Positions 4,799 through 59,592 of a stretch of 64,000 nucleotides of DNA are shown piece by piece. The stretch covers positions 64,899-128,898 of the forward strand of contig JALOLD010000009.1 of the NCBI GenBank assembly GCA_025456145.1. The letters run 5' to 3'. Made by a program: the position numbers and the translations under genes. Within the stretch, counting starts at the first letter, position 1. Each line of letters opens with the position of its first letter. The notes beneath the pieces are model-generated. The model searched no databases. It was not told the origin of the DNA and saw nothing but the letters and a program-made list of their open reading frames with translations. This DNA comes from Thermoanaerobaculales bacterium. GTDB lineage: Bacteria > Acidobacteriota > Thermoanaerobaculia > Thermoanaerobaculales > Sulfomarinibacteraceae.

Positions 4799-5216
4799 CC
4801 GATCCCTCGAGGGCCTGCACCGACTCGATGTGGCGACGCACCAGGCTGACCAGCGCCCGCTGGTCGGCGATCGGCTTGGCGACATAGTCGTTGGCGCCGG
4901 AGGCGAAGAGCAGCCGCTCGCGGTCGCCCTTCATCGCATGGGCGGTGAGCAGGATGACCGGCAGCCCGACCCCGCCGGGCAGCGCCCGGATCCGGCGGGT
5001 CAGCTCGACGCCGTCGACCTTGGCGCCGCGGACCCGGGTGTCCTTGAGCGAGACATCCATCAACGCGGCGCTGATCGGACGGGTCGCCACGAGCTCGAGG
5101 ATCTCGTCGCCGTCGTCGCTGCAGACCACGTCGAAGCCGCCGAGCCGGTTGAGGATCGTCTCCACGAGCAGGGCGTTGGCGGGGTCGTCCTCAACCACCA
5201 GCACCGTGTCCGCCAT
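4785..5216 (-). CDS. Stand-alone response regulator receiver protein (CheY-like)
   Basis: 143 aa. It has VLVVEDD, an acceptor-Asp region ALMDVSL, LTAH and a conserved Lys (YVAKP). No output domain is present. Confidence 0.9.
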   Translation of the reverse strand: MADTVLVVEDDPANALLVETILNRLGGFDVVCSDDGDEILELVATRPISAALMDVSLKDTRVRGAKVDGVELTRRIRALPGGVGLPVILLTAHAMKGDRERLLFASGANDYVAKPIADQRALVSLVRRHIESVQALEGSGDED

Positions 5217-5251
5217 CTTCGAGCCCTCCGAGTCCCTACCACCCTACCACG

Positions 5252-6916
5252 TCATCGGCGCAGGAAGTCGCTCAGCTCCATGCAGTTGACGAGATCGGCG
5301 GGGGTCGCTCCGGCCCGTCGGACGACCGTGAGCCCCCAGGCGACGTCGTCGAGGCCGTCGACCGAGTGGGCGTCGGGGTTGACCGCCAGTCGGAGACCGC
5401 GGTCGAGGGCCCGCCGTGCCCAGACCGCATCGAGGTCGAGGCGATAGGGGCTGGCATTGACCTCGACCGCGACCCCCTGCGCGGCACAGGCGTCGAGCAC
5501 CCGCTCGAGATCGACCGCATAGCCCGGCCGCGCGAGCAGCAGGCGGCCGGTCGGGTGGCCGAGAACCCGGCAGGCCGGGTGGCGGATCGCCTCGATGATC
5601 CGGGCGGTTTGGGCGTCCTCCGAGAGGCGGAAGGACGAGTGCACCGAGGCGACGACATAGTCGAGGCCGTCGGCGCACCCGTCGGGGAGGTCGAGACGGC
5701 CGTCGGCCAGGATGTCGGCCTCGAGGCCCTTGACGACTCGTAGCCCCGGGCCCGCCCGGTTCCAGGCGTCGGCCCTCGCCCACTGCCGGCGCAGCCTCGT
5801 CGCGTCGACCCCGTGGGCGTAGGTCGCGGCCGGCGAGTGGTCGGCGACCCCGAAGAAGCTCCAGCCCCGCCGCGCCGCGGCCTCCGCCATCTCCTCGAGG
5901 GTCGCCGCGCCGTCGGAGTCGGTGGTGTGGTTGTGGAGGACGCCGCGCAGTTCGTCCAGGCCGACCAGCGCGGGGAGCCGGCCGGACGCCGCGAGCTCGA
6001 TCCAGCGGGCGCCATCGCGCAGCTCGGGCGGGATCCATGCCAGACCCAGCGAGCGCAGAACCGCCGCCTCGTCGCCGGCCGCGAGGAGCGTCCCCTCCGG
6101 TTCGCCGCTCGCGACCCGGGCCTCGAGGGCGGCGACGAACCCCTCGTCACCGGTGGCGCGGATCAGGGCGTCGCCGAACGCCCGGGACGGGGCGAGCCAG
6201 AGCTGAACCGCGAGGCCGCTCTCGGGTCGGCACAGCCACCGGCGGTCGCCGAGCCGCTCGGCTCGACCGACCACCCGAGCCACCGCCTCCCCGTCGTCAG
6301 GGTCCTCGCAGTCGACGACGAAGGCGAGCTCCCCGACCGTCTCGGCGCCGCGCCGCAGCTCGCCGGCCAGCGCGACCGACCGGACGCCGGCGGCCCCCTC
6401 GATCGCCCGGAGGACCGCCTCCGCCTCGGCCCGCGCCTGGGGCAGCAGCCGTCGTTCGCCGGCCGAGCGGTGGAAGACGACCGCCTCGAGGACCGCCGCC
6501 TGGGACGTCGGTCCGAAGCCGGTCAGCTCGACCAGCCGGTTCTCGCGGCAGGCGTACTCGAGCTCGCCGACGGTCTCGACGCCGAGCGTCTGCCACAGCG
6601 CCCGCACCTTCTTCGGCCCGAGCCCGGCCAGCTCGAGCATCTCGCGCACCCCCGGCGGCACCGCGCTCTCGGCCTCGACCAAGGCCGCCGGTCGACGTCC
6701 TGCGGCGAGGTCGCCGAGCACCGCGGCGGTCCCCTTGCCGACCCCGGGCAGCTCGAGCACGCGCCCCGACTCGACCAGCTCGGCGAGGTCGCCGGAAGCC
6801 CGCTCGACCGCCCGCGCCGCCCCCGAGAAGGCGCGGACCCGGTGCGGGTTGGCGCCCTGCACCTCGAGCAGGCGGGCGATGCTCCGCAGCGCGTCGGCGG
6901 CCGATCTGCGATCCAT
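5252..6916 (-). CDS. polX: Family X DNA polymerase / PHP phosphoesterase (PolX), polymerase carboxylates apparently substituted
   Basis: ATG at 6916 (MDRRSAADALR...). It has helix-hairpin-helix motifs (LPGVGKGTA, LAGLGPKKV, LTGFGPTSQ). The C-terminal PHP domain carries LHNHTTDSDG, GVADHS, SVHSS and NPDAHS. Confidence 0.85.
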   Translation of the reverse strand: MDRRSAADALRSIARLLEVQGANPHRVRAFSGAARAVERASGDLAELVESGRVLELPGVGKGTAAVLGDLAAGRRPAALVEAESAVPPGVREMLELAGLGPKKVRALWQTLGVETVGELEYACRENRLVELTGFGPTSQAAVLEAVVFHRSAGERRLLPQARAEAEAVLRAIEGAAGVRSVALAGELRRGAETVGELAFVVDCEDPDDGEAVARVVGRAERLGDRRWLCRPESGLAVQLWLAPSRAFGDALIRATGDEGFVAALEARVASGEPEGTLLAAGDEAAVLRSLGLAWIPPELRDGARWIELAASGRLPALVGLDELRGVLHNHTTDSDGAATLEEMAEAAARRGWSFFGVADHSPAATYAHGVDATRLRRQWARADAWNRAGPGLRVVKGLEADILADGRLDLPDGCADGLDYVVASVHSSFRLSEDAQTARIIEAIRHPACRVLGHPTGRLLLARPGYAVDLERVLDACAAQGVAVEVNASPYRLDLDAVWARRALDRGLRLAVNPDAHSVDGLDDVAWGLTVVRRAGATPADLVNCMELSDFLRR

Positions 6917-45245: not shown

Positions 45246-45301
45246 CGAGCCGCCTCCCGGCGGCCCGGCGAGCACGGCCGGACGGCCGGAACCGTGCTCG
45301 C

Positions 45302-46426
45302 TCACTTGGACCTCGACGCGCCGAGCACTCGGGCCACACGGCGGAACGGCAGGCGCAGCGGCACGGGGAGGCGACGGCTCCAGGGCAGTCCCCCCGAGGC
45401 GATCCGATCGGGCAGCACCTCGAAGAGCAGCCTCGCCCAACGTTCCACGATGGTGTCGACCGAGAACTCCCCCGCCCGACGCGCGCCGTTGGCGACCATT
45501 CGGGCGTAGAGCTCCGGATCATCGCGGAGTCGGCGCAGCGCTGCCAGCGCGTCGGCGGTGCCGCACACCTCGAAGTAGTCTTCCTCGCCCCGGCGGATCT
45601 CACGGCAGGCGTAGTCGACGCCGATGATCGCGGGCACCCGGGCGTACCACGCGTTGATCAGCTTGCTGGCGGGCTTGGCGAAGCGGAGCCGCCGCTCGTC
45701 CGGTCGGACCGCCACCACGACGTCGAGGTCGCTGTAGTCCTCCCAGCCGACGGCCGGGATCCTCGGCGTCTCCCGACTCCGCGCCATCCGGGGCACCCAC
45801 TCGAGGCCGAGATCGGCGACGGCGGAGCGCCAGCCGTCGCGTCGGAAGGCAGGGTGGAGGTTCTCGACCAGCCCCATGTAGCCGACCCGCCGGACCGTCG
45901 ACCCCCGCCCGGGGTCGCGAGCTCGGATGCCCGGCTGCGGCCAGTGGGGCACGAAGAAGCGCCGGCGGTCGTCGGCGAAACGGCCATTCTGCAGCACCTC
46001 GAAGTCGGCCAACAGGGGCGCGCTGTTGTCGGCCCTGGTCGCGACGAAGACCAGATCGGACCGCGCCGGGACCAGGCCCGCGAGCGCGTGCTTGTGCTTC
46101 GCGTGAAACACGACGATGCCCCGCTCCGGTGGCCGACCGACGAGCTCGACGGGATAGCCCGCCGCTCGCAGCCGAGCGTAGGTCTGGCCGATCCACGTCC
46201 GCTCGCCGCTGCTGAAGGCTGCAGGCTCGCGGTCGGGGTCGAGGTCCTTCAACTCGTCGAGGTCTGGCTCGTCGGCCAGAAAGAAGCGGACCGGCTCGCG
46301 AGCCTCCCCCTCTCCGAGCACGCCGGAGCGTTCACTGCCGGTGCGTGGGGTGGCGTCGTGCACGATGGACGATTCTAGCGAAACCTCGACCCGTCCGTCC
46401 CGGCCCGGACCGCGGCGAAGCAGCAC
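45302..46426 (-). CDS. Hypothetical protein with glycosyltransferase (GT-B) like C-terminal half
   Basis: 374-aa ORF with high GC3. The C-terminal pattern KPASKLINAWYARVPAII...EEDYFEV...DPELYARM...FSVDTIVERW resembles GT1/GT4 C-terminal domains. Start is uncertain (GTG 46426 is listed). Confidence 0.5.
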   Translation of the reverse strand: MLLRRGPGRDGRVEVSLESSIVHDATPRTGSERSGVLGEGEAREPVRFFLADEPDLDELKDLDPDREPAAFSSGERTWIGQTYARLRAAGYPVELVGRPPERGIVVFHAKHKHALAGLVPARSDLVFVATRADNSAPLLADFEVLQNGRFADDRRRFFVPHWPQPGIRARDPGRGSTVRRVGYMGLVENLHPAFRRDGWRSAVADLGLEWVPRMARSRETPRIPAVGWEDYSDLDVVVAVRPDERRLRFAKPASKLINAWYARVPAIIGVDYACREIRRGEEDYFEVCGTADALAALRRLRDDPELYARMVANGARRAGEFSVDTIVERWARLLFEVLPDRIASGGLPWSRRLPVPLRLPFRRVARVLGASRSK

Positions 46427-46447
46427 GCGAGCACGATGCCCGCGAGC

Positions 46448-46720
46448 TCAGCCGTTCAGGCTCACCGCGTCGACGATGCCGACGATCACCGAGCGGATCG
46501 GCGCGGCGGGCTCGTTGAGGACCTGGCGGGCGCCGGTGCCCTCGTCGAGCACGAGCACGGTCTCGCCGGCCCCGGCGTCGACCGCGTCGACCGCGATGAG
46601 GTAACGCCCGGTCGGCTCGAGATCGAGGCCGAGCAGGTCGACGAGGAGCAGGCGTCGGCCGTCGACCACCGGGTGGTGGACAGTCGAGACCACGGTCCCC
46701 GCGACGCGGCCGATCTTCAC
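46448..46720 (-). CDS. BMC vertex protein BMC-P (EutN/CcmL/PduN family), copy 3
   Basis: 90 aa. MKIGRVAGTVVST..HPVVDGRRLLLV....G....AVD.V.AG.GE.VLV matches the BMC-P family pattern. A GTGA overlap couples it to the upstream gene. Confidence 0.9.
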   Translation of the reverse strand: MKIGRVAGTVVSTVHHPVVDGRRLLLVDLLGLDLEPTGRYLIAVDAVDAGAGETVLVLDEGTGARQVLNEPAAPIRSVIVGIVDAVSLNG

Positions 46721-46992
46721 GGCGCCGCCTCGTGGAGCTGGTCGACGATCCCGACCACCGCGTGGTCGACCGGGACGAAGGTCTCTTGCAGGGCGAGCGC
46801 CGCCTCGCGGCTCGCGACGAAGTAGACGAGCTCGCCCGGTCCGGCCATCGCGACCGCGTCGGCCGCGACCACCGCATCGCCCGCCGGCTCGAGCCGCCGG
46901 TCGAGAGGCTGGAGGACGAGCAGCCGCACGCCCTCGAGACCGGGCGTCACGGTCGAGGCGACGACGGTGCCGATCACCCGTGCCAGGTGCAT
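46717..46992 (-). CDS. BMC vertex protein BMC-P, copy 2
   Basis: 91 aa. MHLARVIGTVVASTVTPGLEGVRLLVLQPLD...AADAVAMAGPGELVYF matches the BMC-P pattern. Confidence 0.9.
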   Translation of the reverse strand: MHLARVIGTVVASTVTPGLEGVRLLVLQPLDRRLEPAGDAVVAADAVAMAGPGELVYFVASREAALALQETFVPVDHAVVGIVDQLHEAAP

Positions 46993-47594
46993 CAGGCCTC
47001 CCCCGCGGTGAGCCGCGCCCGGAACTCGGGGCTCGCTGTGAGGTTGGCGAGCATCTCGTCGTGGAACTGCGGGATCACCACGCTCGCGACGAGCCGGTCG
47101 GCCGGCTCGACCGAAGCGGCGGCCAGCTCGACCGCGGCCTCGACCTCGGCGAGCGGTCCGGAGAGCACGCAGTAGGCCTTGCCGCCGAGGTCGTCGGCGA
47201 GGCGGATCTCGACCAGGCTGACCTCGGCCCCCTTGAGGCCGTGGTCGGCGGCGCGGATCGTCGCCGCCGCGGTGCTCGTCTCGACCACCCCGAGCGCCTC
47301 GCCCGAGGCGGCGCCGCGGCGGCCGAGCAGGGCCTGCACGACGTCGGGGTGGACCGCGGGCAGGTAGACCTCGTCGAGGAGGGCCGCTCGACCGGTCTCG
47401 AGCCCGGCCTGGTAGGCCTCCTCGACGCAGGCGACATCGCCCGCCACGAGCACCAGGAAGCGTCCCGGGTGGACGGTACCGGCGCGGACCACCGCGACCG
47501 GCGCCCGCTTGACCATGGCATCGCCGGCCAGCACCCCGATCGCGATCGAGCCGAGCTCGAGCAGCGCCAGCGCCGGCTGGTCGGCGAGGCTCAC
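46992..47594 (-). CDS. Tandem-domain shell protein BMC-T (single-layer PduT/HO-T1-like)
   Basis: GTG at 47594 in a GTGA overlap with the AldDH stop. 200 aa with two BMC domains (ALALLELGSIAIGVLAGDAMVKRAPV... and ALGVVETSTAAATIRAADHGLKGAEV...). Confidence 0.85.
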   Translation of the reverse strand: MSLADQPALALLELGSIAIGVLAGDAMVKRAPVAVVRAGTVHPGRFLVLVAGDVACVEEAYQAGLETGRAALLDEVYLPAVHPDVVQALLGRRGAASGEALGVVETSTAAATIRAADHGLKGAEVSLVEIRLADDLGGKAYCVLSGPLAEVEAAVELAAASVEPADRLVASVVIPQFHDEMLANLTASPEFRARLTAGEA

Positions 47595-49027
47595 ACGATC
47601 CTCAGACCGCCGGCGATCGCCAGGCGGCGCTCGCGCGACAGGCTGCGCGGCCGGGTCAGGCCCTCGCCGGTCGGGCTGGCGATCGAGAACGAGGTGAAGC
47701 CCTCGCCGCCGTCGCCGAGGCCGGCCAGGGTCGCGGCGTTGGCGACGAAGATGCTGACGTCGATCAGCCGCGCCATCCGGGTGATCGTGTCGACGTTGCG
47801 GCTGAAGATCGACGCGGTGTGGCCGAAGCCGTGCTCGGCCTGGACCGCGAGCGAGATCGCGCGGTCGACGTCGGGGACCCGGGCGACCGGCATCACCGGC
47901 ATCATCTGCTCGGTCCACACCAGGCTGTGCTCGACCGGCACGTCGGCGAGGACCAGCCGGACGTGGTCGGCGTTGGCGATCCCGATCGCGCCGAGGATCG
48001 CACCGGCGTCGCGGCCGATCCACTCGGGGTTGATCTTGCCGGGCGTGCCGTCGTGCCGCGACTCCCGGAAGATCAGCCGCTCGAGCCGAGTCAGCTCGTG
48101 GGCCGCGAGCAGGTGGCCGCCGGCGCCGCGCATCGCCTCGAGCAGCCGGTCGGCCACCGAGGCGACGACGAAGACCTCCTTCTCGTCGGTGCAGATGAGG
48201 TTGTTGTCGAAGGACGCGCCGCGGACGATCTCGCGCCCGGCGAGCTCGAGATCGGCGGTCTCATCGACGACCACCGGCGGGTTGCCCGGCCCGGCGAGGA
48301 TCGCCCGCTTGCCGCTCTTCCGCGCCTCCGCCACCACCCCCGGACCGCCGGTGACGAGCAGGATCCGGACGCCGGGGTGGCGCATCAGCGCCTGGGCGCT
48401 GGCGATCGTCGGCTCGGCGACGCAGCACACCAGGCTCGCGGGGCCGCCGGCCTCGACGATCGCCCGGTCGATCAGCCGGACCGCGTGGGCCGACACCCGC
48501 GCGGCGTTGGGGTGGCAGTTGAAGACCAGGGCGTTGCCGGCCGACACCCCGGCGATCGTGTTGTTGATGATCGTCGCGGTCGGGTTGGTGGTCGGGGTGA
48601 TGGCGCCGATGACGCCGAAGGGCGCGGGCTCGGTGAGGGTCAGCCCGCGGTCGCCGGTCCAGGTCTCGGGCTCGAGGTCCTCGGGTCCGGGGGTCTTGTC
48701 GGTGACCAGCAGGTTCTTCTTGACCTTGTCCTCGGCCCGGCCGAGACCGGTCTCGGCCTGCGCCATCTCGGCGAGCGATCGGGCGTGCTCGCGCATCACC
48801 GCGCGGATGCGCTCGACGATCCGGCGGCGGGCGTCGAGGCCCTGGGCGCGATACGCCAGGTACGCCGTTCGCGCCGCCTCGACCGCCTGGTCGACGGTGT
48901 CGTGGACGCCGCCCCCGGTCGCCGCCGGCGGCGCGGGCGCCGGGGGTCGGCCGCGGTCGCCGTCCCCGATCCTGCGCCGCACCCGGGCGACGATCGCCTG
49001 GATCTCGGTGTCGGTGATGGTCTTCAT
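47591..49027 (-). CDS. CoA-acylating aldehyde dehydrogenase (PduP/EutE type) with N-terminal encapsulation-peptide-like helix
   Basis: 478 aa. The catalytic Cys context is SFDNNLICTDEKEV. The N-terminus TDTEIQAIVARVRRRI is followed by a Gly/Pro linker before the ALDH core. Confidence 0.9.
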   Translation of the reverse strand: MKTITDTEIQAIVARVRRRIGDGDRGRPPAPAPPAATGGGVHDTVDQAVEAARTAYLAYRAQGLDARRRIVERIRAVMREHARSLAEMAQAETGLGRAEDKVKKNLLVTDKTPGPEDLEPETWTGDRGLTLTEPAPFGVIGAITPTTNPTATIINNTIAGVSAGNALVFNCHPNAARVSAHAVRLIDRAIVEAGGPASLVCCVAEPTIASAQALMRHPGVRILLVTGGPGVVAEARKSGKRAILAGPGNPPVVVDETADLELAGREIVRGASFDNNLICTDEKEVFVVASVADRLLEAMRGAGGHLLAAHELTRLERLIFRESRHDGTPGKINPEWIGRDAGAILGAIGIANADHVRLVLADVPVEHSLVWTEQMMPVMPVARVPDVDRAISLAVQAEHGFGHTASIFSRNVDTITRMARLIDVSIFVANAATLAGLGDGGEGFTSFSIASPTGEGLTRPRSLSRERRLAIAGGLRIV

Positions 49028-49053
49028 TCAGGCACTCCGGGTTGCGTTCGTGG

Positions 49054-49107
49054 GGGTGCCAGGCACACACCTTCGTTCGCGGCGAACAAAGTTGGAGCCA
49101 GGCACCC
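49054..49107. repeat. Intercistronic hairpin, paralogue of the 49791..49883 element
   Basis: Basal arms are GGGTGCCAGGC (49054-64) and GCCAGGCACCC (49097-107), with one central mismatch. Inner arms are CTTCGTTCGC / GCGAACAAAG. The element ends 26 nt upstream of the AldDH ATG on the coding strand. Confidence 0.7.
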
Positions 49108-49142
49108 GCTCCGACGCCCGCATCGGCCTTCCCGTCCGGAGG

Positions 49143-49457
49143 TCAACTGGCCCACTCGGAGTCGGCGGGGGTCTTGCGGTAGCGGACCTCGCCGCCGATC
49201 TCCCAGCTGTCGACGATCGCCATGACCACCGCGTCGCATGGCCGGTCGCGGGTCGCCTCGGTCTGCCGGGCCGACGAGCCGGCCGCCCAGAGCACGACAT
49301 CGCCCTCGCCCGCGCCGACGCTGTCGATCGCGACGACATGGCCCGAGGTCTCGCCGCCCGCGAGGTCGAGCTGGCGGACGAGCAGGAAGGTCTGGCCGAC
49401 GAGCCCCTCGTCCTTGCGGCTCGCGACCAGCGTGCCGACGACCCTCCCGAGGAGCAT
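49143..49457 (-). CDS. BMC vertex protein BMC-P, copy 1
   Basis: 104 aa. [31 protein letters not shown]...[14 protein letters not shown]. The TGATG junction shares one nucleotide with the BMC-H stop. Confidence 0.85.
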
Positions 49458-49765
49458 CAGGCCTTCCGCTTGGCCGCCGGCGCCGGCTCGCTGCGACCGA
49501 GGGGCAGCACCGCGTCGATGTTGCCGTGCGGCCGGGCGATGACGTGGGTCGACACCACCTCGCCGACGTTCTGGGCGGCGCGGACGCCCGCTTCGACCGC
49601 AGCCTTGACCGCCGCGACATCGCCCCGAACGACCGCCGTCACATAGCCGCCGCCGGTCTTCTCGTAGGACACCAGCTCGACCTTGGCGGCCTTGACCATG
49701 GCGTCCGACGCCTCGACCATCGCCGCGAACCCTCTCGTCTCGATCATCCCCAACGCTTCAGCCAT
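49457..49765 (-). CDS. Hexameric shell protein BMC-H (PduA/CcmK type)
   Basis: [58 protein letters not shown] is a canonical single BMC domain. Confidence 0.95.
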
Positions 49766-49790
49766 TGCATGCTCCTTTCGCGTCCTCGGG

Positions 49791-49883
49791 GGTGCCAGGC
49801 TTTAGAATCTTGGGAAGTTGTAGGTTCGCATTGCCGACTCGATCGCACCACCGCAACTTCCCAAGATTCTAAAGCCTGGCACC
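49791..49883. repeat. Perfect 30-nt-arm inverted repeat (hairpin) between BMC-T and BMC-H genes
   Basis: Left arm GGTGCCAGGCTTTAGAATCTTGGGAAGTTG (49791-49820). Right arm is its exact reverse complement (49854-49883). The loop is 33 nt. The arms are conspicuously less GC-rich than the surroundings. Confidence 0.95.
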
Positions 49884-49899
49884 CTGGTCTTCCGTTCTT

Positions 49900-50526
49900 T
49901 CAATCTCCTTCGCGTCCGGTGACCGATTCGATGGCGGCGACCGCCGCCTGCCAGCCGACGTCGATGTCCTTCTCCTCGCCGCCGAGATAGACCCGGCCCA
50001 TCGAGCCGAACGCCCGCACCTCGAGGATGTTGATCTCCGCCGCCTTCTCGGCCTGGTTGGCGGCGAGCGCCGCGTAGGCCGCCGGCTCGACCTCCATCAC
50101 GTACATCGTCTGCCCGGGCACGATCATGTGACCGTGCCGCATCCGGTTGATGAGCTGAACCTGGTGGTCGTCGAGGTGGCGGATGACCTGGCTCGAGAGG
50201 ATCTTCGGCTTGCGCCGGGCGCCCTCGTCGAGGCCGAGCTCCGCGAGGATCGCCGCCCCCGCGGCGCGGGTCTCGGCCTGGTTCTCCGAGTGGACCTCGA
50301 GCAGCCCGTAGAAGCGCTCGACGACCTGCATCCCGGGCCGCACCCGGGTCGCCTTGAGGGCGACGTCGGTGAGCCGGTTGATCTCGATCCCAGGCGAGAT
50401 CTCGACCCACAGCGAGGCGTCTCCGGCGAGCGGCAGAAAGCCCTGGGCGACGGTCCCGAGAAAGGCCGCGTACTGGGGCTGCAGGTTGTCGAGGAAGACG
50501 TACGATCGAAGGTCAATACGACTCAC
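49900..50526 (-). CDS. Permuted tandem-domain shell protein BMC-T (CcmP/CsoS1D double-stacking type)
   Basis: 208 aa. From memory, [46 protein letters not shown] and [19 protein letters not shown] closely parallel carboxysomal CcmP. GTG start. Confidence 0.85.
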
Positions 50527-51343
50527 CGGAACCTCCTTCGTCGCCGGTCACGATCTTGATCCCGGCCGACGCGCCGATGCGGCTCGCACCGGCCCTGATC
50601 ATGGCCCGCGCCTCGCCGGCGGTGTGGATCCCGCCGGCCGCCTTGACGCCCATCTTCTCGCCCACCGTCTCGCGCATCAGCGCGACGTCGAACACCGTCG
50701 CCCCGCCCGGGCCGAACCCGGTCGAGGTCTTGACGAAGTCGGCGCGGGCCAGCTGGGCGAGGCGGCATGCGACGACCTTCTCCTCGTCGCTCAGATAGGC
50801 CGCCTCGATGATCACCTTGTTGAGCGCCCCGACCTCGCGGCAGGCGTCGGAGACGCCGGCGATGTCGCGCCGCACCAGCTCGTGGTCGCCGCCCTTGAGC
50901 GCGCCGATGTTGATCACCATGTCGATCTCGCGCGCCCCGTCGCGCAGCGCCCGCCGCGCCTCCATCGCCTTGATCTCGGGCAGGCTCGCCCCGAGCGGAA
51001 AGCCGACCACCGAGGCGACGGTCACCCGGGCGCCGCGCAGCCGGCGGGCCGCCCGCGCGACCCACACCGGGTTGATGCAGACCGCCGCGAAGTGGAAGTC
51101 GGCGGCCTCGTCGCACAGCGTGTCGATGTCGGCCGGAGTCGCGTTCGGCCTGAGCAGGGTGTGGTCGATGTACTCGGCGAGCCCGGCCGGCACCTCGGCG
51201 GCGGCGCCGCTGTAGCCGAGCCGGACCGCGCCGTTGGCGACCGCCTCGCTCGCGTTGTCGAGCCCGCCCCCGGTCTCGGCGGCGGCGAGCACCGCCAGCA
51301 CCTGCCGCGTGATCTCCTCGATCAGCTCGCTACGATCGATCAT
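50513..51343 (-). CDS. deoC: Deoxyribose-phosphate aldolase (DeoC) with N-terminal encapsulation-peptide-like extension
   Basis: ATG at 51343 in an ATGA overlap with the rpiB stop. The core carries IDHTLLRP and the Schiff-base Lys context FVKTSTGF. The N-terminus [18 protein letters not shown] plus a ~35-aa Gly/Ala linker precedes the core. Confidence 0.9.
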
Positions 51344-51891
51344 CCGCCCTCTCCCGCTGGGCCCGCCGACGCGTAGCACCGCTCGACGGCGGTGATCTTC
51401 GCCACCCGGGCGGCGTGGCGCCCCGGTCCCCACTCGGTGGCCAGCCACTCGTCGACGATCCCACGCGCCAGGGCCTCGCCGATCAGCCCGGCGCCCAGGG
51501 TGAGGACGTTGGCGTGGTTGTGCTCACGGCTGTTGCGCGCCGTCGACAGGTCATAGCACAGCGCCGCCCGGACCCCGGGCACCTTGTTGGCGACCATCGC
51601 CGACCCGATTCCCGCGCCGTCGACGACGATCCCCCACCGGCACTCGCCCGCCGCGACCAGACGCGCGACGGCGTGGGCGAAGTCCGGGTAGTCCACCGCC
51701 TCGGTGCTCGAGGTTCCGCAGTCGCGCACCTCGCGGCCCCGGCTCCTGAGGTGCTCGAGGAGGAGCTCCTTGAGCCGGAAGCCGCCGTGGTCGGCGCCGA
51801 TCGCGATCGCCTCGCGGCTCGGGCCGTTGCCCGCGAGCACCTCGTCGACCACCTGCGCCACGACCCGCCGCACCTCCTGCTCGGTGGTCAC
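51340..51891 (-). CDS. rpiB: Ribose-5-phosphate isomerase B / sugar-phosphate isomerase (RpiB/LacAB) with N-terminal encapsulation-peptide-like extension
   Basis: GTG at 51891, 13 nt after the TetR stop. The core carries IAIGADHGG, GIVVDGAGIGSAMVANK and NANVLTLG. The N-terminal extension is TTEQEVRRVVAQVVDEVLAG. Confidence 0.85.
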   Translation of the reverse strand: MTTEQEVRRVVAQVVDEVLAGNGPSREAIAIGADHGGFRLKELLLEHLRSRGREVRDCGTSSTEAVDYPDFAHAVARLVAAGECRWGIVVDGAGIGSAMVANKVPGVRAALCYDLSTARNSREHNHANVLTLGAGLIGEALARGIVDEWLATEWGPGRHAARVAKITAVERCYASAGPAGEGG

Positions 51892-51904
51892 GACCGCCCC
51901 CCGA

Positions 51905-52844: not shown

Positions 52845-53771
52845 TCAGCCGACCGCCTCGAGCACGTACCGCACCGCTGTGACCAGGATGACCAGGCAGA
52901 GCATGATCTTGATCGCCCGCGCCGGGACGTGCTTCTGGACGCGGGCGCCGCAGTACATCCCGGCCGCGCCGCCGAGCCCGAAGAGCAGACCGAGCAGCCA
53001 GTCGGGCCCGACTCCGAGCCAGCTGTAGAAGGCGACCCCGGCGACCGAGGTGACGAGGGTGCCGAGGAGGGCCGCCCCGGCGACCGTGTAGACCGGCAGG
53101 CCGAAGACCGAGACGAAGAAGGGCGCCATGATCGCGCCGCCGCCGATGCCGTAGATCCCACCCGCGATGCCGACCGCGAAGGCGAGGGCAAAGATCCCGA
53201 GGGTCGGGAAGGCGAAGGACTCGCCGTAGAACTCGTACTCGATCCGCGCCGGGCTGACCCGGGTGACCCGAACCGCGGGCAGGAGCTCGCCCCCCTCCTC
53301 GGCGAGCCGTCGGCGCGCCGACGCGAGCTGCTGGAACCGCTCCTCGGCCGAGCGCGCGGCGACGCCGCGCCTGCTTCTGCCGAGTAGGTCGGCGGCCATC
53401 CGGACGCCGATGTAGAGCAGCACCCCGGCGGCGAAGAGCTTGAAGCTGCGCGGGTCGGGGAGGACCCGGACCCGGATCACGGCGCCGATCAGCACCCCGG
53501 GCAGCGTGGCGGCGACCACGACCCAGGCGAGCGGCCACACCATCCGCCCCTCGCGGACGTACCGCCAGACCCCGCTCGGGATCGCGACGACGTTGAACAG
53601 GTGGTTGGTGGCGCTCACCGACGGCGCGGCGTAGCCGAGCACGCTGACCTGGAAGGGCAGCAGCAGGAAGGCCCCGGAGACCCCGCCCATCGAGGTGAAG
53701 AACGAGATGACGAAGGCCACGAGGGGCGGGATCCACGCTGCGACCGTGACACCGGACACCTCGAACTCCAC
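52845..53771 (-). CDS. TauE/SafE (DUF81) family anion permease
   Basis: GTG at 53771 preceded by GAGGAG. 308 aa. Two halves each carry GMGGVSGAF / GIGGGAIMAPF-type motifs. Confidence 0.85.
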   Translation of the reverse strand: MEFEVSGVTVAAWIPPLVAFVISFFTSMGGVSGAFLLLPFQVSVLGYAAPSVSATNHLFNVVAIPSGVWRYVREGRMVWPLAWVVVAATLPGVLIGAVIRVRVLPDPRSFKLFAAGVLLYIGVRMAADLLGRSRRGVAARSAEERFQQLASARRRLAEEGGELLPAVRVTRVSPARIEYEFYGESFAFPTLGIFALAFAVGIAGGIYGIGGGAIMAPFFVSVFGLPVYTVAGAALLGTLVTSVAGVAFYSWLGVGPDWLLGLLFGLGGAAGMYCGARVQKHVPARAIKIMLCLVILVTAVRYVLEAVG

Positions 53772-53782
53772 GGTTGGCTCCT

Positions 53783-56089
53783 CTAGCTCGGACCGCCGAG
53801 GGCCCGCTCGAGCTCGGCCGTGAGGTCGCGGCCGAGGGGGTTGTCGGGGTGGGCGGCGGTCATCCTCCGGGCCACCACGAGGGCAGCCTGGAGATCGCCG
53901 GTTCGTGCGTAGTGATCCGCCAGGGCGAGGAGGGCGTCGAGGCTGGTGGGATCGAGCTCGACCGCCCGTCGCAGCGCCGTCCCGGCATCCTCGATCCGGC
54001 CCACCGCCTGGAGCGCGAGACCGAGGTTGTAGTGGGCGCGCACCCAATCCGGCTCGAGCTCGACCGTGCGCTCGAGGAGGGCCACCGCCTCGTCGACCCG
54101 GCCCATCTCGGCGAGCAGCAGGCCGAGGGAGTAGGTCGCCTGCCCGTCCTCCGGCTGGGCGTCGAGGACCTCCCGGAGCAGGACCTCCGCCTCGTCGTTG
54201 CGGCCGAGCGAGCTGAGCAGCACCGCCAGGTTCATCTTGGCCGGGATGAACAGGCCGTCGACCTCGAGGGCCGCGCGGTACATCTCGACCGCCCGCTCGC
54301 TGTCCCCGAGCCGGGCGGCGAGGTTGCCGAGATTGTGGCCGGCGAAGGCGAAGTCCATAGAGGCGAGCATGTCGGCCTCGTGCTCGGCGACGACCTCGGC
54401 GAGCCGGTCGCGCTGGTAGGGCCGCAGCAGCCCGTCGGGCGCCCCGGCGAGCCGGCTCGCGGCGAGCGTGCGAACCCCTCGCACCGGGTCGAAGAGCAGC
54501 GGCGCGAGCTTCTCGACGAGCTGCTCGGCGGTCATCCCCGGCAGGCCCTCGACCGCGGCCCGACGGATGATCGGCTCGGGGTCGGCGAGGGCGAGGTCGA
54601 AGAGGGCGCCGACCTCGGCGTCCGGGTCGTAGCCCCCGAGCAGGCTGATCGCGGTCGCGCGGACGATCGCCGGATACAGGGGGTCGCCGGCGAGCCGGAT
54701 CAAGGGCTCGCGCGCCTCGGGCGAGCCGGCGCGGCCGCCCGCGATAACTGTGCCGTAGTGGGGCTTGCGCGCTCTGCCATACCAGGCCTCGTGCTCGGCG
54801 ATCTGCCAGTCGAGGCTCTTGTCGGCGTGGCAGCCGGTCTGGCCGCAGGCGTTGGGGACCCCGATCGACCGGGTCAGATCGGGCCGCGGCACCCGGAAGC
54901 TGTGATCCGCCCGCCAGTCGACGACCATGAAGGGCCGCTCGGGCATGTGGCAGGAGACGCAGCGCGCCCCCGCCGACGGCTTCCCATCGACGACCTTCTT
55001 GTGGAAGTGGTGGTCGGGGCTGTCATAGGTGTCGAGCCGATGGCACTGGCCGCACAGCTCGTTGCCCTCGGCCCGGAGCTCGAGGCTGTGGACGTCGTGG
55101 CAGTCCGAGCAGCGGACGTCGTTCGCGTACATCTTGCTCTGGAGGAAGGAGCCGTAGACATAGACCTCGTCGAGGATCTGGCCGTCCGGGTGGTACAGCC
55201 CTTCGTCGAGCAGCGCCGGCACCAGCCGGTCGAGGAGCTCGTGGCTGCTGTGGCTGAAGTCGCCGAGCTCGGAGCGGCGCGAGTGACAGGGGGCGCACAG
55301 CTCGACCTGCTCCCGCGAGGTGATGCCGCTCGTCTGGACCACCAGCCCGTCGCCATCGCCGACCGGCCGGGCCATCGGCGGCAGCTCCGCCCAGGCGACG
55401 TGGGCCGAGCCCGGGCCGTGGCAGGCCTCGCAGCTGACGTCGATCTCCGACCAGGTCGTCGAGAAGCTCCGGCTCGCGAAGTCGTAGCCCTTGACCAGGT
55501 TGGTCGAGTGGCACTCGGCACACATCCCGTTCCAGTTCTGGGCGTTGCGGGTCCAGTGGAGCCAGTCGTCGGGCGGGATGTCGCGATCCGGGTAGAGGTG
55601 GAACCACTCGCCGCGGACCGAGTCCCAGGCGATGCTCAGGGCCTGCAGCCGGCCGCCCGGAAAGGGCACCAGGTACTGCTGGAGCGGGTCGTGGCCGAAG
55701 GTGTAGGCGATCTCGAAGTCCCCCATCTCGCCGTCGGGACCCTCGGTGCGGACGAAGAAGCCGCCGTCTCGTCGGAAGAAGAGGCTGGTGATCCCGCGGT
55801 GGACAAAGGTCGCGTCGGCGAAGTCGCCGAGCACCGTCTCCTCGGTGGCCTCGGCCATCGCCAGGTCGTGGTCCGAGCCGGCCCAGGCCTCGGCGGCAGC
55901 GGCGTGGCAGCCCGCACAGCGCTCCCGGCCGACGAAGACCGGCGGGGCGACCGGCCCTGCGGCGCCTCGGCCCACGGGCTCGATCACCAGCGACAGGGGC
56001 ACCGCGACGACGATCACCGCGGTCGAGACGGCGCCCAGGAGCTTCCACGGGCGGAGGAGGTCGCCGGCGCCCCCCGGCGCCGCGGTCAT
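53783..56089 (-). CDS. Membrane-anchored multihaem cytochrome c (7 CxxCH + 1 CxxxxCH) fused to HEAT/TPR repeats
   Basis: ATG at 56089 in an ATGA overlap with the upstream stop. It has an N-terminal TM. Haem motifs are CAGCH, CAECH, CEACH, CAPCH, CSDCH, CGQCH, CVSCH and CGQTGCH. The C-terminal ~330 aa are helical repeats. Confidence 0.85.
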   Translation of the reverse strand: MTAAPGGAGDLLRPWKLLGAVSTAVIVVAVPLSLVIEPVGRGAAGPVAPPVFVGRERCAGCHAAAAEAWAGSDHDLAMAEATEETVLGDFADATFVHRGITSLFFRRDGGFFVRTEGPDGEMGDFEIAYTFGHDPLQQYLVPFPGGRLQALSIAWDSVRGEWFHLYPDRDIPPDDWLHWTRNAQNWNGMCAECHSTNLVKGYDFASRSFSTTWSEIDVSCEACHGPGSAHVAWAELPPMARPVGDGDGLVVQTSGITSREQVELCAPCHSRRSELGDFSHSSHELLDRLVPALLDEGLYHPDGQILDEVYVYGSFLQSKMYANDVRCSDCHDVHSLELRAEGNELCGQCHRLDTYDSPDHHFHKKVVDGKPSAGARCVSCHMPERPFMVVDWRADHSFRVPRPDLTRSIGVPNACGQTGCHADKSLDWQIAEHEAWYGRARKPHYGTVIAGGRAGSPEAREPLIRLAGDPLYPAIVRATAISLLGGYDPDAEVGALFDLALADPEPIIRRAAVEGLPGMTAEQLVEKLAPLLFDPVRGVRTLAASRLAGAPDGLLRPYQRDRLAEVVAEHEADMLASMDFAFAGHNLGNLAARLGDSERAVEMYRAALEVDGLFIPAKMNLAVLLSSLGRNDEAEVLLREVLDAQPEDGQATYSLGLLLAEMGRVDEAVALLERTVELEPDWVRAHYNLGLALQAVGRIEDAGTALRRAVELDPTSLDALLALADHYARTGDLQAALVVARRMTAAHPDNPLGRDLTAELERALGGPS

Positions 56090-57864
56090 GGTCGGACCAC
56101 CTGGGACGGCTCGAAGGAGGCGCGGCGCACCGTCGTACCCGAGTCGACCTTGACCACCCCGTTCTCGATCCGCACCGGGTGGAGGTCGAGGGCGCGCGGC
56201 GCCGGCGGGCTGACGACCCGGCCGAGGAGGTCGAAGGACGAGGCGTGGCACGGGCAGACGAAGCGCCCCTCCTCCGCGACCCACGGGACGGTGCAGCCGA
56301 GGTGGGTGCAGCTCCGCGACAGGGCGAGGAAGCCCCCGTCCTCGGTGCACGCCAGGTAGAACCGGCCGGCCGGGAACGCGGTCACCGTCCCGGCCTCGAA
56401 GCTCTCCACCGGCCCGGCGACCACGATCGTGTCGTCGTCCGGCGCGGCGCGGCGGCGCAGCGGGCCGAGGATCGCGCCGGCGACCCAGGCCCCCTCGAGG
56501 ACGGCGAGGCCGCCTAGCCACAGCCAGAGCCGCCCGAGGAAGCCGCGCCGGGTCGGCGCCGCGTCGTCGTCCGGGCGCTCGCTCATCCGCCGCTCTCCCA
56601 GGGCCAGACCAGCGAAGCGGGCTCGGAGCACCGCCACGAAGAGCGCGATGGCTGCCACCGCCAGCGCCGGCGCGACCAGGCCGGCCGCCACGCCCGCGGG
56701 CTCGGATGCGGTCGGGCCGAGCTCGTCGAGCACGATCAGCAGCGGCGTCGCGACGAGACCGAACACGACCGCGGCGAGACCGGTCCGCCGCCCGACCGCC
56801 GACATCATCCACACCCCGTCGACGCCCTCGCGGAAGGGGAGGTAGGGCAGCAACGACGCGAGGAGGATCGCCGCGACGGGTACGACCACCACCGCGACCA
56901 CCGGGTGGACGTGGAGCAGCAGCTCCTGGAAGCCGAGGAAGTACCATGGCGCCTTGGCCGGGTTGGGGCTCATGCCGGGGTTGGCCTGGGCGCCGAGCGG
57001 CGCGCTGACGAGGACCGACATCACGACCACCAGCGCGATCAGCGTGCAGGCGACCGCGACCTCCCGGATGAGCAGATTCGGCACGAAGAGCACGGTCTCC
57101 GACGGAGCGTCGACGACCTCGCCCGCGGCCCTCGGGACGACCACCCCCCGGGCCTTGCGGACCCTCCAGAAGTGCAACGCCATGGCGGCGATGAGCAGCG
57201 CCGGCACGACCGTCGTGTGGATCGTGTAGAAGCCGATCAGGGTCGCCGACGAGATCTCGGGCCCGCCCCGGGCGAGGCGCTGGAGCCCCTCGCCGATCCA
57301 CGGCACATAGGCCAGCATCCCGGTCGAGATCGTGATCGCCCAGTAGGACAGCTGGTCCCAGGGCAGCAGGTAGCCGGTGAAGTTCGAGACCAGGACGAGC
57401 AGCAGCAGCCCGAGACCGACCACCCAGTTGAGCTGACGCGGCGGGTGGTAGCCGCCGCTGAGAAACACCCTCAGGAGGTGGAGGCAGACCACCGCGATGA
57501 CCAGGTTGGCGCTCCAGTGGTGGACGGCGCGCACCAGCCGGCCAAAGGGCACCTCGTTCTCGAGGGCAACGACCGAGGCATAGGCCGTGTCGGGCGACGG
57601 CTGGTAGACGAACATCATGAGGGCGCCGGTGGCGAAGAGCAGCAGCACGAGCACCAGCGACATCCCGCCCAGCCCGAAGGTGTGGGTGAAGCGCATGGTG
57701 GCCGCCGGAACCTGGGTCGGGCGGAGGTGGAGCACCAGGGTGTTCAGAACGATCCGGCGCCGGTCGCGGTCGGTGATCGGGAGGATCGGCCCGCCGCCCA
57801 CCGAGCGCCGGATGCGCCGGAGGATCCCGCCCTGCTGCTCGTCCCGATCCGGCTCGGCCACCAC
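56086..57864 (-). CDS. Cytochrome b (b6 + subunit IV-like, 8 TM) fused in frame to a Rieske [2Fe-2S] domain
   Basis: Haem-ligand His pairs are HHWSANLVIAVVCLH and HTTVVPALLIAAMALH (b6-type spacing). The Qo-loop motif is APWY. The C-terminal part has a Tat-like TRRGFLG, a TM and the Rieske boxes CTHLGC / CPCH. The start (GTG 57864 or 57861) is uncertain. Confidence 0.8.
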   Translation of the reverse strand: MVAEPDRDEQQGGILRRIRRSVGGGPILPITDRDRRRIVLNTLVLHLRPTQVPAATMRFTHTFGLGGMSLVLVLLLFATGALMMFVYQPSPDTAYASVVALENEVPFGRLVRAVHHWSANLVIAVVCLHLLRVFLSGGYHPPRQLNWVVGLGLLLLVLVSNFTGYLLPWDQLSYWAITISTGMLAYVPWIGEGLQRLARGGPEISSATLIGFYTIHTTVVPALLIAAMALHFWRVRKARGVVVPRAAGEVVDAPSETVLFVPNLLIREVAVACTLIALVVVMSVLVSAPLGAQANPGMSPNPAKAPWYFLGFQELLLHVHPVVAVVVVPVAAILLASLLPYLPFREGVDGVWMMSAVGRRTGLAAVVFGLVATPLLIVLDELGPTASEPAGVAAGLVAPALAVAAIALFVAVLRARFAGLALGERRMSERPDDDAAPTRRGFLGRLWLWLGGLAVLEGAWVAGAILGPLRRRAAPDDDTIVVAGPVESFEAGTVTAFPAGRFYLACTEDGGFLALSRSCTHLGCTVPWVAEEGRFVCPCHASSFDLLGRVVSPPAPRALDLHPVRIENGVVKVDSGTTVRRASFEPSQVVRP

Positions 57865-58143
57865 ACCCCCCCTGGAGCGGACCGACCCATGATACCCGGA
57901 CGCGGAGGGGAGCCCGGCGTTCCCCGGTTCGACCCGAGAGCCGACGACGCCGCCGGCGCCCGTGCGGTCAGCCGACACCGCCCCAAGATCCAGCCGCGAG
58001 CCGATCACCTCTGCCTCGCCGTCGCCGTTCCTGCCGCTGGCCCGATGGCTGCCCCGCGATCATGGAGGGGCTCACTAAATGAAATGTTGTCTCAATATTA
58101 ATAACAGAGTTTGCCTAGAATGATTCCTGATCGGAGGATCTCG

Positions 58144-59592
58144 ATGAGGTATGTCTGCTCGGTCTGCGCCTGGGTCTTCGACGAGGAGTCCGAGGGTCTG
58201 GGCTGGGCCGATCTGCCCGACGACTGGACCTGCCCGATCTGCACGGCCGACCGGAGCTTCTTCGAGAAGGAGGGAGGAGCCGGCGCAGCGGCGCCGCCCA
58301 CCGCCCCAACCCACGGGGACGCCACGACCGAAGCGGGCGATCTCGCGAGCTATCTCGCGAGCTGGCGGAGGGAGAGCCACCCGATCGAGGAGGACCTCGC
58401 CACGATCCAGGAGATGGCGATCACCGGCCGCACCGTCCTCGACCCGATGCGGACGACGAAGCCGGTGCCCTCCTGGGACGAGATCCTGATCTGCGGCGCC
58501 CAGCTCGCCACCCTGCCGCTCAACGCGGACGAGCCGGTCTCGACCGCGACGGTCATCGGGCCGAAGGCCGCGACGCCGCTCGTCATCGACACCCCGGTGT
58601 ACGTCAGCCACATGTCCTTCGGCGCGCTGTCGCGCGAGGTCAAGATCGCGCTGGCCCGCGGCAGCGCCGCGGTGGGCACCGCGATGTGCTCGGGCGAGGG
58701 CGGCATTCTGCCCGAGAGTCTCGCGGCCGCCCACCGGTACATCTTCGAGGTCATCCCCAACCGCTACTCGCTGACCGATCACAACCTCCGGGCGGTCGAC
58801 GCGGTCGAGATCAAGATCGGCCAGTCAGCCAAGCCCGGGCTCGGCGGCCACCTGCCGGGCGACAAGGTCACCGCCGAGATCGCCGCGATCCGCGGCTTCC
58901 CGCCCGGCGTCGACATCACCAGCCCGTCGCGCTTCCCCGACATTCGCGACGCCGACGAGCTCCGCGCCAAGATCGACTGGTTGCGCCAGGCCACCGGCGG
59001 CAAGCCGGTCGGCGTCAAGCTCGCCGCCGGCCGGATCGAGGCCGACCTCGCCGTCGCCTTGGCGGCCGGGCCCGACTTCGTCACCATCGACGGCCGGCCG
59101 GGCGCCACCGGGGCCGCGCCCAAGGTGGTCAAGGACGCCGCCGCGATCCCGACGATCTACGCTCTCGCCCGGGCCCGGCGGTTCCTCGACGATCACGGCG
59201 CCGACGGCGTGTCCCTCGTCGTCACCGGCGGCCTCCGGACCTCGTCGGACGTCGCCAAGGCCCTCGCCATGGGCGCCGACGCCGTTGCCCTTGCCTCCGC
59301 GGCTCTGATGGCGGCCGGCTGCCAGCACTATCGGATCTGCCACACCGGCCGCTGCCCGGTGGGTGTCGCCACCCAGGATCCGGAGCTGCGTGCGCGCCTC
59401 GATGTCGAGCGCTCGGCGCGGCGGGTGGCGAACTACCTCGGCGCCCTGACCCGGGAGCTCGGCGACTTCGCCCGCCTCACGGGCCGCGACGACGTCCATT
59501 CGCTGAGCCCGAGCGACCTCCGGACCACCAGCCCGGAGATCGCGAGATACACCCCGATCGCCCACGTCGGCGAGCCCGAAGCAACCTCGTGA
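58144..59592 (+). CDS. Rubredoxin fused to glutamate-synthase-like FMN/Fe-S domain protein
   Basis: ATG at 58144 preceded by GGAGGA. The rubredoxin domain carries CSVC...CPIC. The GltB-domain-2-like core carries MSFGALS, GQSAKPGLGGHLPG and DGRPGATGAAP. The Cys cluster is CQHYRICHTGRCPVG. Confidence 0.85.
   Translation: MRYVCSVCAWVFDEESEGLGWADLPDDWTCPICTADRSFFEKEGGAGAAAPPTAPTHGDATTEAGDLASYLASWRRESHPIEEDLATIQEMAITGRTVLDPMRTTKPVPSWDEILICGAQLATLPLNADEPVSTATVIGPKAATPLVIDTPVYVSHMSFGALSREVKIALARGSAAVGTAMCSGEGGILPESLAAAHRYIFEVIPNRYSLTDHNLRAVDAVEIKIGQSAKPGLGGHLPGDKVTAEIAAIRGFPPGVDITSPSRFPDIRDADELRAKIDWLRQATGGKPVGVKLAAGRIEADLAVALAAGPDFVTIDGRPGATGAAPKVVKDAAAIPTIYALARARRFLDDHGADGVSLVVTGGLRTSSDVAKALAMGADAVALASAALMAAGCQHYRICHTGRCPVGVATQDPELRARLDVERSARRVANYLGALTRELGDFARLTGRDDVHSLSPSDLRTTSPEIARYTPIAHVGEPEATS

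Follow-up and report, generated by a model that had tools for sequence, protein, structure and literature searches.

A 104-bp deletion private to one Thermoanaerobaculales assembly places cytochrome b and Rieske genes in a single open reading frame

Cytochrome b and the Rieske protein are separate chains in every solved complex of the b6f/bc1 group (those compared here were 7r0w, 1vf5, 1zrt, and 6kls). Natural fusions of subunit IV to cytochrome c and of cytochrome b to cytochrome c exist, and the actinobacterial Rieske protein QcrA is an evolved and conserved polytopic protein with three helices, inserted by Sec together with Tat. In Geobacter sulfurreducens, the extHIJKLMNOPQS genes encode a Rieske protein (ExtO), a split cytochrome b of 23 kDa (ExtP), and a 17-kDa membrane subunit (ExtQ), each as a separate gene (PMC5877670). 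In Rhodobacter bc1, cytochrome b has been fused to cytochrome b by engineering, and covalent tethering through a cytoplasmic linker was tolerated (PMC4330944).

We analyzed a window of 64,000 nucleotides from a Thermoanaerobaculales metagenome-assembled genome (MAG), in which a stop-free open reading frame (ORF) at 56086..58008 on the minus strand, where all features described below also lie, covers both cytochrome b and Rieske. The predicted product has 640 aa from the first GTG at 58008, 592 aa from a start at 57864, and 591 aa from the start assigned by PGAP at 57861. The same frame matches the Pfam families Cytochrome_B (E 5.9e-43), Cytochrom_B_N_2 (8.2e-36), and Rieske (4.3e-09), in agreement with the original prediction that the two proteins share a single stop-free frame. 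The length of this frame is weak evidence, because the window has a G+C content of 71.7% and contains 23 runs of 640 or more codons without a stop; we count the observation as real because both halves show homology in frame. GenBank annotates the fused product as one protein, MCU0303650.1 (591 aa; 'cytochrome b N-terminal domain-containing protein [Thermoanaerobaculales bacterium]'), encoded on a 155,884-bp contig. The identical product appears among public proteins at 591 aa (P0124, which is MCU0303650.1) and at 640 aa (P0127), and these sole fused sequences on record both come from one contig.

The cytochrome b part (56615..57861) comprises helices A–H, in which a core resembling b6 is joined by a region resembling subunit IV and by helix H. 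Several features proposed for it at the outset were confirmed, including the b6-type 13/14 spacing of the haem-ligand histidine pairs (H163/H177 and H264/H279 on helices B and D, in the 640-aa numbering), the Qo-loop motif APWY (residue 353, same numbering), and a count of eight transmembrane (TM) helices, which we recovered as eight hydrophobic segments plus one Rieske anchor. P306, W307, and Y308 of the PEWY-type Qo motif in the ef loop were invariant in a 24-sequence alignment. Helices A–H are the counterpart of the canonical core of bc1 cytochrome b, and PDB bc1 chains align up to query residue ~402-404; this match, together with the nine-span topology that the Rieske anchor restores, counts against describing the protein as damaged.

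The Rieske [2Fe-2S] part (56086..56586, 166 aa) is a separate gene in sister assemblies (P0121). It is a full Rieske protein with a twin-arginine anchor, as had been claimed: the motif TRRGFLG (56533..56553; RRGFLG at residue 487 of the 640-aa numbering) precedes an anchor helix at ~56467-56532, the two forming a putative Tat signal-anchor, and the cluster-binding boxes CTHLGC (residue 567) and CPCH (residue 585) lie within 56245..56310. The locus thus carries the two histidine pairs, the PEWY-type motif, and the Rieske boxes with twin-arginine signal-anchor by which a bc-type complex is recognized. The separation of cytochrome b and Rieske into two polypeptides, also characteristic of such complexes, is absent from the window, where they form one ORF, whereas it is found in six sister assemblies and in 77 of 77 complete cytochrome b frames from the 80 species loci.

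Alignment of the window to JAOQHZ010000013.1 (GCA_025490995.1), in which cytochrome b and the 166-aa Rieske gene are separate with a 4-nt overlap, gave 99.95% identity on both flanks of a 104-bp gap, with a 3-bp overlap representing microhomology. The junction falls at this CGC microhomology (56612..56614), where other assemblies have 104 bp encoding a ninth TM helix, (A)PMEETVQAVAVLLVVALVVLTLTGVWFRGEGMAL, and in the deletion allele it reads CGCTTCGC joined directly to TGGTCTGG. The identical 104 bp were present in seven contigs of six other assemblies from the same population, 99.85–100% identical to the window (GCA_025490995.1, GCA_025490975.1, and the JGI metagenomes 3300037458, 3300037524, 3300037408, and 3300037461); a second contig from 3300037461 begins inside the 104-bp segment. 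Scanning with 30 nt of the junction gave no match in metagenome contigs or in genome contigs, where the species is absent among representatives and the best match was 72%. In the intact allele, cytochrome b has 460 aa and nine TM helices, and its TGA overlaps the ATG of the 166-aa Rieske gene. Because 104 = 3 × 34 + 2, loss of this segment brought cytochrome b into frame with Rieske. The inference that two genes overlapping at ATGA had been joined through a frame change was therefore borne out by the intact sisters; the evolved or novel architecture also proposed in the original prediction was not, as an indel restoring the ATGA overlap is precisely what six sister assemblies carry at 99.85–100% identity.

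In the mechanism that we propose, deletion between two CGC triplets would remove the ninth-helix codons of cytochrome b, the resulting frame shift would bypass the TGA that normally terminates cytochrome b inside the ATGA overlap, and ribosomes that begin at cytochrome b would read AGLALGERR and continue through the Rieske start codon. What is left of the 3' end of cytochrome b (56587..56611) is read as (A)GLALGERR in the Rieske frame and as VWPWESGG followed by TGA in the intact allele. In the ATGA at 56583..56586, the native Rieske ATG (56586-56584) overlaps the TGA (56585-56583) that formerly ended cytochrome b, and GGGAGAG at 56593..56599, which lies within the codons for the conserved W-E in the tail of cytochrome b, is the native Rieske Shine-Dalgarno sequence. 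The latter is indeed upstream of the in-frame ATG at 56586 (56599-56593), as first described, with a spacing of six bases and not nine. The Tat motif, Shine-Dalgarno sequence, and ATG had been considered relict, but they are base for base the native Rieske start of the intact alleles. As Rieske keeps its own Shine-Dalgarno sequence and ATG, free Rieske protein could arise beside a read-through product, cytb(delta-helix-9)-Rieske. A motif scan of the window found no second Rieske or multihaem gene that might compensate.

The helix encoded by the missing 104 bp was present in all of the 44 homologues shown from an alignment of 120 sequences, and residues E423, Q426, T440, G443, F446, R447, G448, G450, and M451 within it were invariant among 24 sequences with identities down to 56%. 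An AlphaFold2 model of the intact homologue P0002, calculated from the 24-sequence alignment, was of low confidence (pLDDT 61, pTM 0.45), and the sole feature used from it, nine long helices, agrees with hydropathy. The cytochrome b part of the fused frame is incomplete, as the conserved ninth helix of the family is missing. The formal symmetry of indels would also allow an ancestral fusion, from which the other assemblies would have gained the two-gene form through insertion of 104 bp. This history is refuted, and we give it virtually no credence: the helix encoded by the 104 bp is conserved across several phyla, in relatives with 83%, 72%, and as little as ~55% identity, and all of them have a stop between the genes.

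Other fusions were sought in several sets of sequences. The Rieske domain was absent from the 120 best database cytochrome b homologues (394-546 aa). The 80 species-representative loci yielded 77 complete cytochrome b frames, all of them unfused, and the more distant relatives L002 and L003 were likewise unfused. In ~70 species loci, Rieske and a multihaem gene lie downstream of cytochrome b, and all three relative frames of Rieske occur among them. Judged from these sequences, a putative cytochrome b–Rieske fusion family does not recur across independent genomes or lineages. Because the deletion occurs in only one MAG, and six sisters and 80 related species have the two-gene state, the fused ORF is a one-off lesion or an assembly error rather than a new type of respiratory protein, and an evolved fusion architecture is excluded whether the deletion is a real allele or an assembly error.

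A real allele might still produce a working single chain, tolerated or favoured, in which the Rieske anchor replaces helix 9 and Tat export proceeds from an internal motif. The topology would be kept, since after eight helices the junction is cytoplasmic and the ninth span is supplied by the Rieske anchor, an arrangement that was put forward originally and that hydropathy supports as workable. The fused frame retains the canonical eight helices of the core together with the Qo motif, the ligands of the haems, and the Rieske cluster boxes, and actinobacterial Rieske proteins are a precedent for internal Tat-dependent insertion after Sec-inserted helices. We nevertheless consider a functional fusion improbable: it would be a singleton among seven near-identical assemblies and 77 unfused frames from related species, with L002 and L003 also unfused; the helix that it lacks is among the best-conserved parts of the protein; literature searches for a natural cytochrome b–Rieske fusion found no precedent, returning only engineered b–b and b6/subunit-IV fusions; and the surroundings of the junction are unchanged since the event, giving no sign of adaptation. 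Even less probable is the combination of a genuine segregating allele in the natural population with a functional single chain, which would be the first natural tether of bc-type catalytic subunits, caught at its origin.

We lean towards a real deletion that arose very recently and was captured by a single assembly, in preference to assembler error, and towards an effect that damages rather than improves the enzyme. The deletion in the sequence, its restriction to this assembly, the conservation of the helix that it removes, and the two-gene state elsewhere are observed directly; both the physical existence of a molecule carrying the deletion and its functional consequence are what we infer from the comparisons described here. 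Loss of the 104 bp during assembly, bin refinement, or polishing of a genome that truly has two genes is a serious possibility, held with less conviction. It is favored by the intact sequence in seven contigs of six independent assemblies of the same population, by strain heterogeneity at the locus (a SNP cluster at 56459-56515, with JGI contigs that break and overlap exactly here), by the window haplotype being a mosaic of alleles from other assemblies, and by the removal of invariant residues from a core respiratory subunit. However, the breakpoints offer only 3 bp of microhomology and no repeat that, given the expected behaviour of assemblers, would be long enough for k-mer graph collapse, and the remaining contig is clean over 20.7 kb, a span in which comparison with the sister assemblies revealed no further indel of >1 bp. 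Every variant allele of the window was also present in some sister assembly over the 13.4 kb compared, which leaves the deletion as the sole difference private to this assembly in that interval.

Two further readings were considered and set aside. Repeat-mediated assembly collapse was rejected because the breakpoints share only the 3-bp microhomology, which is also too short for collapse of a de Bruijn graph to be a likely cause; a 10-bp repeat (TGGCGCTGGT), read by eye, occurs within the deleted segment and at its right edge and does not coincide with the left breakpoint. The idea that the window reproduces the public record with noise or alterations was ruled out, as the four coding differences from L001 are all synonymous third-position changes and the variant alleles all occur in other assemblies. 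All four JGI assemblies, apparently from one sample series, show the intact allele only, an observation that counts against a physically real deletion allele.

The region opens an ordinary, conserved operon whose genes specify, in order, a nine-helix cytochrome b, a Rieske protein with a Tat anchor, a multihaem cytochrome c, and TauE; the predicted complex is a member of the Rieske/cytochrome b superfamily that acts as a quinol:cytochrome c oxidoreductase. The third gene (53783..56089) specifies a 768-aa membrane-anchored multihaem cytochrome c with seven CXXCH motifs, one CX4CH motif, and HEAT and TPR repeats, and its start overlaps the Rieske stop (ATGA). The fourth (52845..53771), for a 308-aa membrane protein of the TauE/SafE family, is found only in the closest relatives. 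The module of nine-TM cytochrome b, Rieske, and multihaem cytochrome c is widespread and may merit study by itself. MCU0303650.1 is best treated as the probable product of a frameshift or lesion and not as a new domain architecture, and similar 'fusions' in high-GC MAGs should be checked against sister assemblies. If functional, a natural single chain would bear on the mobile Rieske head, the domain-swapped anchor, and Sec/Tat cooperation, but the evidence points to a singleton deletion.

Among known systems, the best PDB matches were cytochrome b6 (E 2.6e-46) and, for Rieske, the corresponding subunit of b6f (E 2.1e-15). The locus shares with b6f and bc1 the 13/14 histidine spacing, APWY as a PEWY-like motif, the CTHLGC/CPCH boxes, and the twin-arginine signal-anchor. 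It differs in that the native cytochrome b is a long form that extends b6 and subunit IV by two helices to a total of nine TM, in that cytochrome b precedes Rieske rather than following it, and in that the predicted electron acceptor is a HEAT/TPR cytochrome with eight haem motifs. With respect to b6f alone, one gene here covers both the four-helix b6 and the three-helix subunit IV that b6f splits, and the CxGG cysteine of haem cn is absent, the corresponding motif being FGLGG. The best NCBIfam matches were cytb_ExtP (270.4 bits, E 1e-80) and memb_ExtQ (E 5e-10); the former score is below the curated cut-off of 290, so the protein is not an NF040969 cytb_ExtP equivalog. Like ExtO/ExtP/ExtQ (Cbc6) of G. 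sulfurreducens, the locus encodes a Rieske/cytochrome b core beside multihaem cytochromes c, whereas here the b and subunit-IV-like parts form one gene and Rieske follows it. Neither the Rhodobacter b–b fusions nor the natural b–c fusions link cytochrome b to the mobile Rieske subunit, and the junction described here differs from both in stemming from an unselected deletion that also removed a conserved helix. QcrA resembles the predicted read-through product in having an internal twin-arginine motif after TM helices; in contrast to QcrA, the arrangement here is accidental and eight helices precede the motif.

A 640-codon ORF without a stop on the minus strand (56086..58008) encodes both cytochrome b and a Rieske protein, as the original prediction held. 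With 71.7% G+C, the window contains 23 stretches of 640 or more codons without a stop, so the length of the ORF is by itself no evidence for a fusion; the evidence is in-frame homology. Pfam places a Cytochrome_B domain at residues 107–285 (E 5.9e-43), a Cytochrom_B_N_2 domain (E 8.2e-36), and a Rieske domain at residues 550–607 (E 4.3e-09) in this one frame. Its top NCBIfam matches are cytb_ExtP, cytochrome b6, ExtQ, and the b6f Rieske subunit, with a cytb_ExtP score (270.4 bits) below the cut-off of 290. Every motif predicted was found, namely the cytochrome b His pairs H163/H177 and H264/H279, APWY at residue 353, RRGFLG at residue 487, CTHLGC at residue 567, and CPCH at residue 585 of the 640-aa ORF. 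Hydropathy analysis of cytochrome b gave 8 hydrophobic spans, after which comes the Rieske anchor; the topological argument that the anchor could still export its cluster domain was correct. The 58008 start adds 49 residues (57862-58008, minus strand) without counterpart in homologues; as cytochrome b homologues start near MAEPD/MADQD, the PGAP start at 57861 is more credible. A G run upstream of this probable start differs in length by 1 bp at 57872 in two sister assemblies with the intact allele.

The best 120 homologues of the fused protein are 394–546 aa long, and all lack a Rieske domain. The first of them, P0001, is 100% identical with only 71% query coverage and is encoded on JAOQHZ010000013.1 (GCA_025490995.1), where cytochrome b ends in ...RARFAAPMEETVQAVAVLLVVALVVLTLTGVWFRGEGMALVWPWESGG before its stop and Rieske is a gene of its own (166 aa), overlapping the cytochrome b end by 4 nt. 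By BLASTN, the window is collinear with this contig at 99.95% identity and lacks 104 bp, with the flanking blocks sharing three bases, CGC, at 56612-56614. Because 104 = 3 × 34 + 2, the loss puts cytochrome b in frame with Rieske: what was VWPWESGG-TGA now reads (A)GLALGERR, and translation then passes the Rieske ATG. A microhomology-flanked 104-bp deletion therefore created the fused ORF, bearing out the proposed origin from two overlapping genes by frame change. The same deletion means that the Shine-Dalgarno GGGAGAG (56599-56593), the Rieske ATG in frame with the fused ORF (56586-56584), the out-of-frame TGA overlapping it (56585-56583; all minus strand), and the twin-arginine motif are not relicts, as had been suggested, but the unaltered native start of the Rieske gene. 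Within the cytochrome b tail, GGGAG falls on the conserved W-E codons, and relatives with 83% and 72% identity have it too.

The missing 104 bp code for transmembrane helix 9 in this family of cytochromes b. This helix reads xPxEExxQAxVxLLxxxxxVLTxTGVWFRGE in all 44 homologues displayed from the 120-sequence alignment and is visibly better conserved there than the preceding helix H. Residues E423, Q426, T440, G443, F446, R447, G448, G450, and M451 are invariant in 24 sequences, down to 56% identity. An AlphaFold2 model of an intact homologue has nine long helices, at low overall confidence (pLDDT 61) that is highest for helices G–I. The alignment of PDB bc1 cytochromes b stops at helix H; helix 9 is therefore particular to this family and extends the canonical eight-helix core.

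The deletion is confined to one assembly. The fused product is represented in public protein clusters by P0127 (640 aa) and P0124 (591 aa; MCU0303650.1, 'cytochrome b N-terminal domain-containing protein [Thermoanaerobaculales bacterium]'). Both come from one 155,884-bp contig, evidently that of the window, and their cluster also includes cytochromes b of the intact form (460/461 aa) and Rieske proteins encoded separately (166 aa). The identical 104 bp are present in GCA_025490975.1 and in JGI metagenomes 3300037458, 3300037524, 3300037408, and 3300037461, with flanks 99.85–100% identical to the window; a second 3300037461 contig begins within the segment. In a seven-way alignment, the deletion is the sole private difference of the window in 13.4 kb, and each of its SNP alleles is common to some other assembly. 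The 20.7 kb compared show no further indel above 1 bp, and the four coding differences from a near-identical intact locus are all synonymous third-position changes. We therefore regard the window as a natural strain-level variant and reject the idea that it is a noisy copy.

On balance we lean towards a genuine recent allele, probably a lesion. An assembly artefact is a less likely but quite possible explanation: six other assemblies disagree with the window, including all four JGI assemblies, apparently from the same sample series, and the site lies within a strain-heterogeneity patch where JGI contigs break, but 3 bp of microhomology should be too short to collapse a k-mer graph and the rest of the contig is clean. 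Strain variants cluster at 56459-56515, where the JGI 3300037524 haplotype has four within a 57-bp part of the Rieske signal-anchor, two of them reading as non-synonymous (V29A and L43R); the JGI 3300037461 contigs break and overlap here. Should the allele be real, its product would be a cytochrome b without helix 9 extended by the Rieske protein, and the cell could probably also make free Rieske protein from the retained start. That this product is a new, working fusion seems very improbable, viable as its topology is.

Eighty loci emerged when a single genome of each species was scanned; they belong to Acidobacteriota, Gemmatimonadota, Latescibacterota, Planctomycetota, Myxococcota, Desulfobacterota, Bacteroidota, Krumholzibacteriota, and other phyla. 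In all 77 with a complete cytochrome b frame, as in two more distant relatives (L002 and L003), a stop precedes any Rieske motif. Rieske boxes lie 245–1257 nt downstream (mostly 245–800 nt) in all three relative frames (72 loci, motif scan). By tBLASTN, Rieske is found in 72 of the 80 loci, and the 768-aa multihaem protein has a homologue in 70; the gene order is invariably cytochrome b–Rieske–multihaem c. The conserved state is two separate genes, often translationally coupled, and the fusion is not ancestral. In another MAG, at L041 (CAVONV010000032.1, match 4001-5372), the homologous cytochrome b frame is interrupted (stop-to-stop ORF of only 378 aa against a match over residues 7–458), probably by a frameshift in that assembly. 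Nine-helix cytochrome b, Rieske protein, and multihaem cytochrome c form a three-gene module (53783-57861, minus strand) kept in 70 of the 80 species-representative genomes across many phyla; the one in the window combines 8 haem motifs with HEAT and TPR repeats in its multihaem protein.

Divergent from this operon are a rubredoxin domain fused to a glutamate-synthase-like FMN protein (58111-59592, plus strand) and, as the next gene, rubrerythrin; relatives of 83% and 72% identity share the neighbourhood of this pair. On the operon's other side, directly downstream of the TetR gene that comes after it, lies a bacterial microcompartment locus (about 45300-51900, minus strand) encoding RpiB, DeoC, a CsoS1D_N-type shell protein, aldehyde dehydrogenase, two BMC-domain proteins, and three EutN/CcmL proteins (Pfam, L089/L090).

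Full-text literature searches found no natural cytochrome b–Rieske fusion, so the earlier statement that none had been described stands. The novelty claimed for this one is not supported, given a deletion confined to one assembly and no fusion among 77 complete frames, and the locus supplies no such precedent. Judged by sequence, the system would work like a Rieske/cytochrome b quinol oxidase. The closest solved relatives of its proteins are b6f subunits, which in b6f are always separate chains. The closest named family is Geobacter ExtO/P/Q, in which Rieske, split cytochrome b, and membrane subunit follow in that order as separate genes (PMC5877670); the window cytochrome b is related to ExtP/ExtQ but falls under the ExtP cut-off, and the module order, cytochrome b before Rieske, reverses the classical one.
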